The translations under genes and the position numbers were made by a program. This document shows positions 40,481 to 52,539 of a DNA stretch of 64,000 nt, in pieces. Each line of letters starts with the position of its first letter. Position 1 is the first letter of the stretch. The notes beneath the pieces are model-generated. The model saw nothing but the letters and a program-made list of their open reading frames with translations. It was not told the DNA's origin and searched no databases. This DNA is from an uncultured Gammaproteobacteria bacterium (GTDB lineage Bacteria > Pseudomonadota > Gammaproteobacteria > CAMYKB01): contig CAMYKB010000001.1 in NCBI GenBank assembly GCA_947258875.1, positions 52,081 through 116,080 of the forward strand, given 5' to 3'.

Positions 40481-41278
40481 GTGATGAGGGTGTTTTCTTT
40501 TAGAAATATTCGTATTTTAGTACTGTTGATGCTGCTGGGTTATGCTTCGCTCTATACCTATGACCAACGCCTTTCAACCCAGGGCTGGTACAAACCACTG
40601 GCAGTCGTTGTCTACCCCATCAATGTCGCACAAAGCCAGACTGTCGATAACTATATCCGGAATCTACCAACCGAACACTTCACCGCTATCGACGATTTCA
40701 TCAGGCGCGAAGGCAAAAAATACGACATTATCGCAGCAAATCCCACTGTGACACGCCGGGGCACAGAAGTTAAATCATTACCCCCAGCGGCGCCGCAAGA
40801 GGCTGGCATATTGAAGGCCATGCTCTGGAGTCTCAAACTTCGCTGGTGGGCCTATCGCAACACACCTGATGAGGAATCCAACAAACGGCGTATACGAATA
40901 TTTGTTCTGTATCACGACGACAACGGCAATCAGCCACTGGATCATTCGCTCGGGTTGCAAAAAGGCCTGCTCGGCATTGTACATGCCTACGCCCTCAGCA
41001 ATCAGGAACAGCAGAACAATATCGTGATCGCACATGAGCTACTGCATACCGTCGGTGCTACAGACAAGTATGGGTCGATGGGCCAACCTGTACACCCGCA
41101 CGGCTATGCCATGCCACTGCAACAGCCGCTGCACCCACAACGGCGTGCCGAAATCATGGCGGGCCGTATTGCGACCACCGCCACCACGGCACGCATGCCC
41201 AACAGCCTGCGCAGCGTTGTCGTAGGAGACAAGACCGCCCGTGAGATCGGCTGGATAACAGTAGACGACAATCCCTAA
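40481..41278 (+). CDS. Membrane-anchored zincin metallopeptidase-like protein
   Basis: N-terminal TM segment, AHELLHTVGATDKY and Met-turn-like EIMAG. Confidence 0.75.
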   Translation: MMRVFSFRNIRILVLLMLLGYASLYTYDQRLSTQGWYKPLAVVVYPINVAQSQTVDNYIRNLPTEHFTAIDDFIRREGKKYDIIAANPTVTRRGTEVKSLPPAAPQEAGILKAMLWSLKLRWWAYRNTPDEESNKRRIRIFVLYHDDNGNQPLDHSLGLQKGLLGIVHAYALSNQEQQNNIVIAHELLHTVGATDKYGSMGQPVHPHGYAMPLQQPLHPQRRAEIMAGRIATTATTARMPNSLRSVVVGDKTAREIGWITVDDNP

Positions 41279-41554: not shown

Positions 41555-41812
41555 ATGCGTAACAACATTCTTTTATTGATTCTGGGTATAACACTACTTC
41601 AGCCTGCTTTCGCCGCAACCCGTGATTTCGCAAGCATTGATTCCGATAGCAACGGTTACATCAGTGCTAGTGAAGCGAACTCGATGCCTGGACTGTCCGG
41701 ACTTTTCCTGGCCATCGATACCGACCGTGATGGCAAAATCAGTCCCGCTGAATACGACATCGCTATCCGTGGCGGAGCAACCAGCAAAGGCTGGTCTGAC
41801 ACTGATGGTTAA
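41555..41812 (+). CDS. Small secreted EF-hand protein
   Basis: Signal peptide and two loops, DSDSNGYISASE and DTDRDGKISPAE. AAGGAG RBS. Confidence 0.85.
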   Translation: MRNNILLLILGITLLQPAFAATRDFASIDSDSNGYISASEANSMPGLSGLFLAIDTDRDGKISPAEYDIAIRGGATSKGWSDTDG

Positions 41813-41845: not shown

Positions 41846-42127
41846 ATGACGAGGAGCTCTTATATGGACAGGATCAAGATTATGTCAGTCACACTCCTCC
41901 TGGCGATGCTGGTGACTGCATGCGAGAACAAAACGGACACGCAACTTGAAACAAGTAACGAAGCGCAACAACAGCCAGCCGACACGTCCAGGGCAATATC
42001 CCCGACAGGTACTATAATACCTGGAGGCAGCTACACATCACCCACTGATGGGCAAGACAAGAAGCCTTACAACAGCAGCAGGTCTTCAGAAAACGAAGCG
42101 GCCGATGAGGCTACACCTAAAGACTGA
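41846..42127 (+). CDS. Small disordered lipoprotein
   Basis: Lipobox LVTAC followed by a polar low-complexity tail. Confidence 0.7.
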   Translation: MTRSSYMDRIKIMSVTLLLAMLVTACENKTDTQLETSNEAQQQPADTSRAISPTGTIIPGGSYTSPTDGQDKKPYNSSRSSENEAADEATPKD

Positions 42128-42248
42128 AGCTTGAAGACAGTTTCTTTTACAAATGGACCCCTCACCCCCCTATACCTCCTCCGTAGGGGGGGCATGCCAG
42201 GGAAGGCTTTTTTATTTTTGAACCATGTACTCGCAAATTAATTAAGGA

Positions 42249-43253
42249 ATGATGATGGCAGGTAATACTGATCATGTACGTGCTGTTCTACGGAAACACA
42301 CGAAAGAAATCCATACAAAGCACCGTGTTGTGGCCACAGGCATTGGCTACAAAATCAAGGGCGGACGCAAGACCGACAGCATCTCAATCATCTGTTCTGT
42401 TGTACACAAACGGCCAGCAGCGGAACTGACTAAGAGCGAGCTATTACCCGTAAGCATCGATAATGTGCCGCTGGATGTAATCCAGACGGGGCGCATTCGT
42501 GCTTTCCAATCACGTACAGAGCGTTTACGACCCGCTCCGGGCGGCGCCAGTATCGGGCATTTTGAGATCACCGCTGGCACGCTAGGTTGTATCGTCAAAC
42601 GCAACGGACAAAGAATGATACTGTCAAATAATCATGTACTCGCCAACAGTAATGACGCCAACATCGGAGATCCTATCCTACAACCTGGACCGGTTGATGG
42701 CGGCCGCCTCGCCGATGATCAGATCGCCACACTGCATGATTTTGTACCCATCCAGTTTCCAGACGAGTCCAGCGATTGTGGTATTGCGAACGGCGCCGCC
42801 AAATTCGCAAACGCCCTTGCTGAAATGTCGGGTAGTACTACACGTCTACTGGCGGTCAAATCCCAGGCAGCAGAAAATCTCGTTGATGCCGCAATTGCCA
42901 AACCACTCCAGGACCAGGACATCACTGACGATATCCTGGATATCGGCACCATTACAGGCACAGCCCGCGGTGAACTGGGCCTCAATATCAAAAAAAGCGG
43001 CCGTACTACGGCTTTCACGACAGGCGTGATCGAACAGATAGATGTCACGGTTAATGTACAATATGGTCCTGGACGCACTGCGCTGTTCACAGATCAGTTA
43101 CTGGCCGGCCCCATGAGTCAGGGGGGTGACAGCGGTTCAGCCATACTCGACGAACAAAACCGTGTGATCGGCTTATTATTCGCGGGTAGCGAGAACAGTA
43201 CTATTATCAACCACATCGAACATGTGTTTTCAGCTTTAAGGGTCAGTCTGTGA
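42249..43253 (+). CDS. Trypsin-like (Nal1-like) serine protease with N-terminal pro-like domain
   Basis: GTLG, SNNHVL (His), VDAAIA (Asp), GGDSGS (Ser) and IGLLFAG. No signal peptide. Confidence 0.85.
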   Translation: MMMAGNTDHVRAVLRKHTKEIHTKHRVVATGIGYKIKGGRKTDSISIICSVVHKRPAAELTKSELLPVSIDNVPLDVIQTGRIRAFQSRTERLRPAPGGASIGHFEITAGTLGCIVKRNGQRMILSNNHVLANSNDANIGDPILQPGPVDGGRLADDQIATLHDFVPIQFPDESSDCGIANGAAKFANALAEMSGSTTRLLAVKSQAAENLVDAAIAKPLQDQDITDDILDIGTITGTARGELGLNIKKSGRTTAFTTGVIEQIDVTVNVQYGPGRTALFTDQLLAGPMSQGGDSGSAILDEQNRVIGLLFAGSENSTIINHIEHVFSALRVSL

Positions 43254-43537
43254 TACGCCCGTATCTTGCTTACATACTACTGCTGACATGCGCACTACCG
43301 ATTCACGGAGCATCAAACGTGAGTGAAACCATCGAAGAGGTGAAGGCGCGGCATACCGCTGCAATCATGAATACACCGGGGGTGATTTCTATGGGCATCG
43401 GTAAAGACAGTTGCGGCAATCCAGTCATCGCAATCGGCGTGGAAAAAGACAGCGCTGAGATCAGGGACGCGATCCCTCAAAAACTGGACGGCTATCCAGT
43501 AGAGATCAAGGTAATGGGCTCGATACGGACCCAGTAA
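43250..43537 (+). CDS. Secreted small protein homologous to the adjacent protease's N-terminal domain
   Basis: GTGA overlap with the protease stop, signal peptide, RHT..I....V...GIG and IP..LDGYPV....G.IR. Confidence 0.8.
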   Translation: MIRPYLAYILLLTCALPIHGASNVSETIEEVKARHTAAIMNTPGVISMGIGKDSCGNPVIAIGVEKDSAEIRDAIPQKLDGYPVEIKVMGSIRTQ

Positions 43538-51987: not shown

Positions 51988-52539
51988 ATGAAACTCACAC
52001 CCTTACAGCAACGCTTTGTGCTTCATTGGGGCGAAATGGGCAGCCGATGGGGGGTCAACCGCACCATCGGGCAGATCCACGCGTTGCTGTTTCTAAGCGA
52101 TAAGCCTTTGAATGCCGAGGAAATCACAGAAGCGCTTTCTGTGGCACGCTCGAATGTCAGCACCAGTTTGAAGGAGCTCCAGTCCTTTGACCTGGTGCGT
52201 GTGGTACACGTAATGGGAGATCGCCGCGACCACTTTGAGGCGGAGCAGGATACCTGGGAAATCTTCAAACGCGTGGTGGCGGAGCGTCGCCGCCGCGAGA
52301 TTGACCCCACCCTATCAATGCTGCGTAACGCCTTGCTTGAAACCGCCGAGACCTCTGAAGACACGAAGACCCAGACAAAATTGCGCGAGCTTCATGACTT
52401 CCTTGATGATGGCACACGTTGGCTGGATGAGGTCGAGCGCCTCTCGCCTGAAACACTGATGAAGATCATGAAAATGGGTTCCCGTATCCAAAATGTGATT
52501 CGTGGCGGTAAAACCGACAGCAATAAGAAAACCGCTTAA
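51988..52539 (+). CDS. GbsR/MarR family transcriptional regulator
   Basis: FVLHWGEMGSRWGVNRT, SNVSTSLKEL and RRDHF motifs. Confidence 0.9.
   Translation: MKLTPLQQRFVLHWGEMGSRWGVNRTIGQIHALLFLSDKPLNAEEITEALSVARSNVSTSLKELQSFDLVRVVHVMGDRRDHFEAEQDTWEIFKRVVAERRRREIDPTLSMLRNALLETAETSEDTKTQTKLRELHDFLDDGTRWLDEVERLSPETLMKIMKMGSRIQNVIRGGKTDSNKKTA

Follow-up and report, generated by a model that had tools for sequence, protein, structure and literature searches.

The window, a 64,000-nucleotide (nt) stretch of contig CAMYKB010000001.1 from an uncultured Gammaproteobacteria bacterium of the lineage CAMYKB01 (contig positions 52,081 to 116,080), carries on its plus strand a protease open reading frame (ORF) of 334 codons (42249..43253), followed by a small ORF of 95 codons with a GTG start (43250..43537). 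The protease resembles the product of NAL1, a much-studied rice yield gene, and the small protein is a free-standing paralogue of the N-terminal domain of the protease. The small gene has a signal-peptide-like extension and, behind it, a candidate second start, and may thus encode an exported as well as a cytoplasmic form. Both ORFs lie where a sequence-only reading of the window had placed them, and their GTGA overlap was confirmed by the ORF list and by reading the sequence. Two small exported-looking proteins are encoded upstream of the pair and a DUF2269 gene lies downstream on the opposite strand; with these neighbours and the overlap, protease and small ORF look like a two-gene unit. Its features are listed below (aa, amino acids; pLDDT, predicted local distance difference test).

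42244..42248, plus strand: AAGGA, a Shine-Dalgarno-like (SD-like) motif 6 nt ahead of the third ATG (42255)
42249..43253, plus strand: NAL1-like S1 serine protease ORF without signal peptide, 334 aa from the first ATG, probably 332 aa from 42255
42249..42512, plus strand: protease N-terminal domain (N-domain), residues 1-88, with tail TGRIRAFQ; counterpart of the NAL1 ATP-binding domain (residues 89-172)
42513..43250, plus strand: linker and chymotrypsin-fold catalytic domain, with His129 at 42633-42635, Asp213 at 42885-42887 and Ser295 at 43131-43133
43250..43253, plus strand: GTGA overlap, the start of the long small ORF lying over the TGA stop of the protease; an arrangement of translational coupling, read from the sequence
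43250..43537, plus strand: long form of the small gene, 95 aa and stop; signal-like extension, then free N-domain paralogue
43250..43318, plus strand: signal-peptide-like extension, residues 1-23, MIRPYLAYILLLTCALPIHGASN; Arg3, then a 14-residue hydrophobic stretch, recognised by a hydropathy heuristic and by eye
43307..43310, plus strand: GGAG, candidate internal ribosome-binding site within the signal-coding stretch, 8 nt before GTG 43319
43319..43537, plus strand: short form, 72 aa and stop; the internal GTG is Val24 of the long form and fits database model P0001
43514..43534, plus strand: conserved C-terminal tail MGSIRTQ, residues 89-95; in hhalign the counterpart of the protease linker TGRIRAFQ (TG-x-IRA-x-Q), with model pLDDT falling to 69

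The protease probably starts at the third ATG (42255), since the protein-database model (P0002) has 332 aa and the AAGGA motif precedes this codon by 6 nt. Pfam assigned the window protease to Trypsin_2 (E 9.3e-07, over the cut-off), while NAL1_N (20.0 bits, cut-off 27) and Nal1_C (18.3 bits, cut-off 26.1) scored under their gathering cut-offs, and the protein is therefore termed NAL1-like rather than a Pfam member. These cut-offs are a threshold of the models, which seem to have been built around plant proteins, and not a biological feature; many close relatives of the protease carry PF25608. The family comprises at least 6430 relatives at E <= 0.001 among 8000 scored candidates. The best 120 of these are 330-339 aa long and 59-66% identical to the window protease, with conservation of about 60% across phyla. 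The sequence-only reading had credited the protease with an intact His/Asp/Ser triad and no signal peptide, and both claims hold: His129, Asp213 and Ser295 show no variation among 19 aligned proteases, and the hydrophilic N-terminus forms helix 4-22 of the N-domain in the structural model.

A family profile built from the 19 proteases matched rice NAL1 chains (E 2.2e-12), with profile positions 25-129 corresponding to residues 112-236 in full-length NAL1 (8has_A). The AlphaFold model of the protease (pLDDT 77, predicted template modelling score 0.80) leaves the linker (89-112) and an insert (173-207) poorly defined, and its N-domain consists of helix 4-22 and strands 27-37, 40-51 and 73-79 at a pLDDT of about 90. 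When this model was compared with the Protein Data Bank (PDB) using Foldseek, the best matches were all NAL1 chains (E 3.5e-13, template modelling score 0.56-0.64), followed by streptogrisin B, a Glu-specific protease and alpha-lytic protease. The genome of the window, 98.5% complete, holds one protease/partner pair only and no exported NAL1-type protease. It also encodes a distant, signal-less trypsin-fold protein of 301 aa on contig 12 (L029:1417-2322; Trypsin_2 E 4.3e-05, with a weak NAL1_N-like start, E 0.023), which is preceded by a 115-aa membrane protein and has no free N-domain copy nearby.

The small protein is homologous to the N-domain of the protease. Pairwise BLASTP gives 19/78 identities (24%; E 0.004 in a single comparison), and hhalign of 14 small proteins against the 19 proteases gives 96.9% probability (E 1.6e-10), aligning small-protein residues 23-95 with protease residues 5-86. 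A hidden Markov model (HMM) of the small proteins also matches the N-terminal domain of the protease ORF in the window and in 21 of 25 genome loci. The alignment of the small protein with the N-terminal region of the protease, as first read from the sequence, was thus borne out by profile comparison and by modelling. An exhaustive HMMER search recovered 832 representative relatives of the small protein at E <= 0.001, and a word-index homology search with it returned only its own 72-aa model. The small protein matched no Pfam or NCBIfam family, and NAL1_N was reached by only 1 of 14 and 1 of 92 of its relatives.

The AlphaFold model of the small protein has a pLDDT of about 96 over residues 28-90 and shows a helix-strand-strand-helix-strand order (H28-40, E45-52, E58-64, H69-74, E82-88). 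When PDB sequences were searched with a profile of the small proteins, only chance-level rows came up (E 0.25 or worse). A second structural aligner placed the model best on rice NAL1 (8pn1_A residues 86-173; Z 7.3, root mean square deviation (rmsd) 2.9 A over 67 residues). The model also matches the pro region of alpha-lytic protease (2pro_C, Z 5.8; 4pro_D and 3pro_C, Z 5.4 each). The C-terminal tail is of rather constant length, as 71 of 117 single-domain relatives end exactly 5 residues past a conserved Gly; of the 86 single-domain relatives with tails of at most 8 residues, 38 end in Q and 18 in R. In a tree of 16 small proteins and 14 N-domains, the two kinds separate with support of 88/92 and 97/94, and the label changes twice compared to 10.2 times when shuffled. 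The copy is therefore old and not a recent duplicate of the neighbouring domain, so that the earlier description of the small protein as a copy of the protease's "own" domain did not hold.

Protease and small gene are genomically linked. In genome loci found via the protease, the small domain adjoins in 23 of 25 cases (21 clear; weak in L018 and L025; none in L005 and L011). Conversely, the metagenome loci found via the small protein have a protease directly upstream in 70 of 80, or 70 of the 75 that could be assessed, five being cut by the contig end (L030, L045, L084, L101 and L102). The metagenome scan used a closer alignment set keyed on PGVVSVGIG, and this sample therefore covers one branch of the family. 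The small gene usually lies directly downstream of the protease, and upstream in L013 and L019. The two-gene module proposed from the sequence is thus conserved. In addition, pairwise identities of the partners correlate with those of the catalytic domains (r 0.64 over 21 pairs, a value reached in none of 999 permutations), as would be expected of co-inherited genes. The module is patchily distributed within the class of the window's organism, as none of 40 other genomes carries the small gene at E <= 1e-8.

Several lineages keep the small domain free of any signal. In a Chloroflexota locus (L012), one gene encodes the protease with the small domain appended at its C-terminus and no intervening signal, a protein with two Pfam NAL1_N matches (E 3.5e-15). 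Signal-less free copies occur in L002, L006, L013, L015, L019-L022 and L024, and signal-less partners of 68-90 aa are found in other phyla, modules of this kind being present in Chloroflexota, Bacillota and Actinomycetota. The fusion without signal and the signal-less free copies are evidence that the domain can share the compartment of the protease. The sequence-only reading had assigned the partner to export, and this does not carry over to many lineages, which have solely a signal-less form or a protease fusion.

Other architectures were also observed among the relatives. In five exported proteins (P0122, P0123, P0136, P0139 and P0203), a signal peptide or lipobox is followed by two to four copies of the small domain in tandem; P0203 combines four copies with an unrelated C-terminal part. 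P0244 and P0261 are secreted NAL1-type proteases of permuted order, with a signal peptide, a catalytic domain without N-domain, and the small domain at the C-terminus; the catalytic domain of P0244 is 39% identical to that of the window and exceeds the Nal1_C cut-off. In L076 (2501-2791), an exported small protein with lipobox LLSC and an internal GTG with SD-like motif has no protease within 2.5 kb on each side. The gene sits between unrelated-looking ORFs of 314 and 340 aa, and near-identical genes on other contigs follow a protease. Together, the exported tandem repeats, the secreted proteases with C-terminal domain and the protease-free exported copies indicate that the domain is also used outside the cytoplasm.

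The long ORF of the window begins with MIRP, followed by 14 hydrophobic residues, and comparison with relatives shows that the extension is under coding constraint. Over the last 22 codons of the extension, the frame is free of stops in all 51 relatives and encodes hydrophobic sequence in 45 of them, while the other two frames contain stops in 44/51 and 20/51 and are never hydrophobic. Start and stop overlap as NTGA in 28 of 32 dereplicated long forms having a complete upstream protease. Clear lipoboxes, e.g., LFAC, LVGC, LTAC and LAAC, are found in many relatives. About 87 of 150 representative relatives carry a signal-like extension, this count being the raw threshold value of 92 minus five short proteins whose hydrophobic stretch forms one of the strands of the domain. 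In the nearest Atlas clusters, which are unnamed and share no Pfam family, the models have 94-100 aa. Based on the frame control, the NTGA overlap and the lipoboxes, we take the predicted exported long form to be real. The signal peptide noted from the sequence therefore stands for the long ORF only, where the extension is signal-like and constrained, as the 72-aa database model lacks it. Two other interpretations of the extension were rejected. Export by the twin-arginine translocation (Tat) route, carrying the protease along, fails since twin arginines occur in only two of the extensions read (L007 and L008) and not in the window, and a reversed membrane anchor fails on the position of the charges, which lie on the N-terminal side of the hydrophobic stretch.

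Within the same gene, a second start appears to be conserved. The database model P0001 comprises 72 aa with 99% identity and 76% coverage of the long ORF, in agreement with initiation at GTG 43319. For the start-site statistics, which rest on our own motif definitions, 94 small genes were dereplicated at 80% identity to 56, of which 46 were long forms, with the conserved PGVxxxGxG stretch serving as anchor for counting positions. In 36 of these long forms, the fourth residue ahead of the conserved Ile is encoded by a start codon (29 ATG and 7 GTG, against one GTA), compared to a background of 8.0% per codon in gene bodies (p 6e-31), and 45 of 46 have a start somewhere at -6 to -3. An SD-like motif, defined as GGAG, GAGG or AGGA at a spacing of 4-10, precedes the internal start in 28/46, against 9.9% at other codon positions. 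Resampling synonymous codons with the amino acids kept gave 12.5 +/- 2.4 such motifs, with a maximum of 20 in 2000 runs, where 28 of 45 were observed. In two Chlorobiaceae loci (L002 and L006), the extension is lost and the short form alone is left, starting at the same Met. The role in a "different compartment" suggested by the sequence-only reading is thus at most half retained: the long form has a signal-like extension, but the conserved internal start with its SD-like motif predicts a cytoplasmic form too. Gene models of the family are likewise split between short (about 72 aa) and long (94-100 aa) versions; P0180 corresponds to an internal part of the L008 ORF and P0211 to a truncated form of the L014 ORF.

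Rice NAL1 (PDB 7Y77, 8PMM, 8PME, 8HAU and 8HAS; Pfam NAL1_N PF25608 and Nal1_C PF25819) is the closest characterised relative in sequence and fold for the protease, and in fold for the small protein. NAL1 and the window protease share a two-part architecture, in which a small alpha/beta domain at the N-terminus precedes a chymotrypsin-fold domain bearing the His/Asp/Ser triad. According to the parts of the NAL1 study consulted, residues 89-172 form an ATP-binding domain that contacts the protease domain of the neighbouring subunit and builds the trimer, the basic residues R120, R122, K123 and K139 bind ATP, this ATP-binding and oligomerisation domain stays attached to the protease, and trimer and hexamer cage are needed for activity, the trimers being joined by arm residues 48-53 (PMC12012508). 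In the alignment, the phosphate-binding residues R120, R122 and K139 fall on K35, K37 and K54 of the bacterial protease and K123 on G38, and K35 and K54 are nearly invariant. The small protein family, on the other hand, has no conserved basic residue at the places of K35 and K54. NAL1 also differs in being a single polypeptide, for which the consulted parts of that study mention no free domain copy (PMC12012508). Both its N-terminal arm (1-88), which builds the hexamer, and its long C-terminal region are absent in the bacterial protease; the 332-aa protein has no counterpart of arm residues 48-53.

The pro region of alpha-lytic protease is both foldase and inhibitor. The catalytic domain of this enzyme (reference structures PDB 2PRO, 3PRO, 4PRO and 1BOQ) belongs to the same chymotrypsin-fold branch as the window protease. 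Its prodomain is described, in the portion of the source consulted, as alpha-beta-beta-alpha-beta with both helices on one face of a three-stranded sheet (PMC11836899), and the entry for PDB 1BOQ, likewise consulted in part, describes an interaction of the pro-region C-terminus with the active site. The small protein has this prodomain fold in its model, and also a conserved C-terminal tail. The pro region, however, is about 166 residues long, part of a secreted precursor and cleaved off, whereas here the domain within the protease is not known to be cleaved and the free copy is a separate gene. Neither the small protein nor 92 of its relatives matched the pro-region family in Pfam, and no pro-region chain appeared in the profile search of PDB sequences. 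Unrelated alpha/beta domains, such as the C-terminal domains of MamM and ZnT, score Z 4.5-5.7 alongside, and the likeness to the pro region is thus one of shared fold only, not of shared function. Similarly, PDB 4HLB (DESPIG_01740 of Desulfovibrio piger), an alpha-lytic protease prodomain-like protein, is a small stand-alone fold matching the model (Z 4.6, rmsd 4.2 A, 69 residues), yet it is not among the small-protein profile matches at E <= 10 and has no detectable sequence relation. The pro-region idea of the sequence-only reading is therefore upheld as far as the fold goes (Z 5.4-5.8); by sequence, the domain corresponds to the ATP-binding and oligomerisation domain that in NAL1 remains attached.

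Free proteins resembling the N-terminal (pro) domain of a protease are known as propeptide-like inhibitors, including that of Plasmodium SUB1 (PMC6993865) and CTLA-2alpha, crammer and BCPI of the I29 family (PMC4089206), which according to the parts of these sources consulted act in trans. They differ from the present case in that they belong to the subtilase and papain-like cysteine protease clans, are eukaryotic, are not encoded in the operon of their target and have no second start. A parallel for the second start is Tli, the immunity lipoprotein against the phospholipase Tle of the Enterobacter cloacae type VI secretion system (T6SS), for which the consulted part of a preprint reports an exported form and a cytosolic form, the latter made from internal starts, with different jobs towards the neighbouring signal-less enzyme (bioRxiv 10.1101/2023.03.28.534661). 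The start codons of Tli lie behind its signal sequence, as do GTG 43319 and its candidate ribosome-binding site (GGAG 43307-43310) relative to the hydrophobic stretch here. Fold and enzyme class are unrelated and Tli is tied to a T6SS that is absent in this genome, making this an analogy of layout only. The locus may combine two known kinds of arrangement, in one of which a protease is paired with a propeptide-like protein, while in the other a single gene with two starts supplies two compartments.

From the observed homology, fold, linkage, fusions, and coding and start-site signals, we infer that both forms are made, that either may bind the protease, and that binding has an effect. With moderate confidence, the locus is read as a two-gene operon of a cytoplasmic NAL1-type protease and a dedicated partner, the latter encoded by a two-start gene with exported and cytoplasmic forms. 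Initiation at the first start, in the GTGA overlap, would yield a 95-aa precursor with a predicted Sec-type signal, which would be exported. Initiation at the second start (GGAG, 8 nt, GTG 43319) would yield the signal-less 72-aa form, which would stay in the cytoplasm with the protease. There, it may bind the protease domain at the usual docking place of the N-domain and so regulate assembly, activity or access to the active site. It could be speculated that the conserved C-terminal tail lies in the substrate cleft, like that of the alpha-lytic protease pro region. The exported form may have a similar role beyond the cytoplasm, serving as a domain that binds or inhibits. The sequence thus reads as that of a gene built for two proteins, of which the short cytoplasmic one would be the part that was never given up.

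Several observations weigh against the two-start operon. In the window, the residues HGA precede Ser23, and a His at -3 makes the predicted cleavage region atypical. No SD-like motif precedes the internal start in the seven signal-bearing Chlorobiota loci examined or in the one signal-bearing Desulfobacteraceae locus (L003, L004, L007, L008, L009, L010 and L014 being named as loci without it), so that the second start is there supported by the conserved Met only; structural demands could also preserve a Met as the first residue of the domain. Exported small genes have no protease nearby in five loci (L057, L061, L076, L091 and L093), and these loci and the tandem repeats imply that the exported domain can work without a NAL1-type protease. 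Rice NAL1 needs no such partner, as far as the consulted parts of that study go (PMC12012508). Finally, Foldseek gave no row at E <= 0.001 for the small-protein model against the PDB, and Z values of 5-7 are within reach of common small alpha/beta folds.

Two rival accounts keep just one of the two forms. If only the exported form exists, as in the sequence-only reading, the 95-aa precursor would deliver a mature domain acting as a periplasmic inhibitor or immunity factor, or in a role unrelated to the neighbouring protease. This is unlikely, although the signal-like extension is constrained as coding sequence and coupled at its start to the protease stop, about 87/150 representative relatives have it, many with lipoboxes, and the domain recurs in exported tandem repeats, at the C-terminus of the secreted NAL1-type protease P0244 and in some exported copies without a neighbouring protease. 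What it leaves unexplained is the position-specific start codon with an SD-like motif inside the signal-coding stretch, along with the signal-less and fused forms of other lineages. Also against it, the 98.5%-complete genome lacks an exported NAL1-type protease, the only other weak relative, L029, being signal-less too. The reverse account, in which the 72-aa model alone is real and the in-frame stretch upstream is untranslated or translated without consequence, we consider rather improbable. The extension is open in 51/51 and hydrophobic in 45/51, with the other frames closed or never hydrophobic; it begins over the protease stop in 28/32, has the charge-hydrophobic-polar layout of a signal peptide, often with a lipobox Cys, and corresponds to the 94-100-aa models of the nearest Atlas clusters. 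In favour of this account are the 72-aa protein-database model, the GGAG 8 nt before GTG 43319, and the signal-less 68-90-aa partners of other phyla and of the two Chlorobiaceae loci.

A more distant possibility is an effector/immunity pair, in which the signal-less protease would be a weapon or released enzyme destined for the periplasm of other cells or kin, the exported form an immunity protein blocking the incoming protease, and the cytoplasmic form a factor that holds or matures the protease before release. The layout of a signal-less enzyme with an exported small partner and an internal start does parallel Tle/Tli, as far as described in the part consulted (bioRxiv 10.1101/2023.03.28.534661), and the distribution is patchy, with 0/40 other genomes of the class having the small gene at E <= 1e-8. 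Yet, this seems very unlikely: T6SS sheath (PF05943) and Hcp (PF05638) were not found in the 98.5%-complete genome, no secretion, VgrG or PAAR genes adjoin the pair, and neither protein matches a PADLOC family. Moreover, modules with signal-less partners also occur in Chloroflexota, Bacillota and Actinomycetota, and a protease conserved at about 60% identity across phyla would be unusual for a toxin. If it were nonetheless true, a widespread uncharacterised protease family would gain a role in bacterial conflict. Chance resemblance or a spurious ORF, to which the weak pairwise BLASTP match (E 0.004) and the lack of a Pfam or NCBIfam family for the small protein might point, is refuted by the 832 representative relatives, the hhalign probability of 96.9%, the confident model and the conserved linkage.

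The sequence-only reading knew of no description of such a pairing, and none was found here: the literature searched, with subscription journals and supplements outside its coverage, did not describe any prokaryotic relative of NAL1 accompanied by a free N-domain, and contained no papers combining "NAL1-like" with "protease". What is new here is the export signal and the second start of the small gene. The findings expose a large and unannotated prokaryotic NAL1 family, with more than 6,000 close protease relatives and 832 representative partner clusters. A conserved partner derived from the same type of domain as the enzyme's own N-terminus points to an unexamined control of such proteases, and the pair offers a simple bacterial system for studying the role of the N-domain in ATP binding, assembly and gating. 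The two start sites, if true, would make a clear example from nature of a single bacterial gene supplying two compartments, and they would show that the split of gene callers between 72-aa and 94-100-aa models concerns the same gene.

As for the surroundings of the pair, no anomaly was seen in the base composition, a promoter/terminator scan at the locus gave no more sites than shuffled sequence, and in PADLOC neither the protease nor the small protein matched any family. Just upstream on the plus strand, a 93-aa low-complexity protein with a lipobox-like LVTAC (41846-42127) is preceded by one of 85 aa that begins with a signal-like stretch and contains two EF-hand calcium sites (41555-41812; EF-hand_5, E 3.6e-10). 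Further upstream on the same strand, a hydrophobic N-terminal stretch and the HExxH motif AHELLH are found in a 265-aa ORF (40481-41278) that matches no Pfam family at E <= 1 and may encode an unclassified membrane-anchored metallopeptidase.

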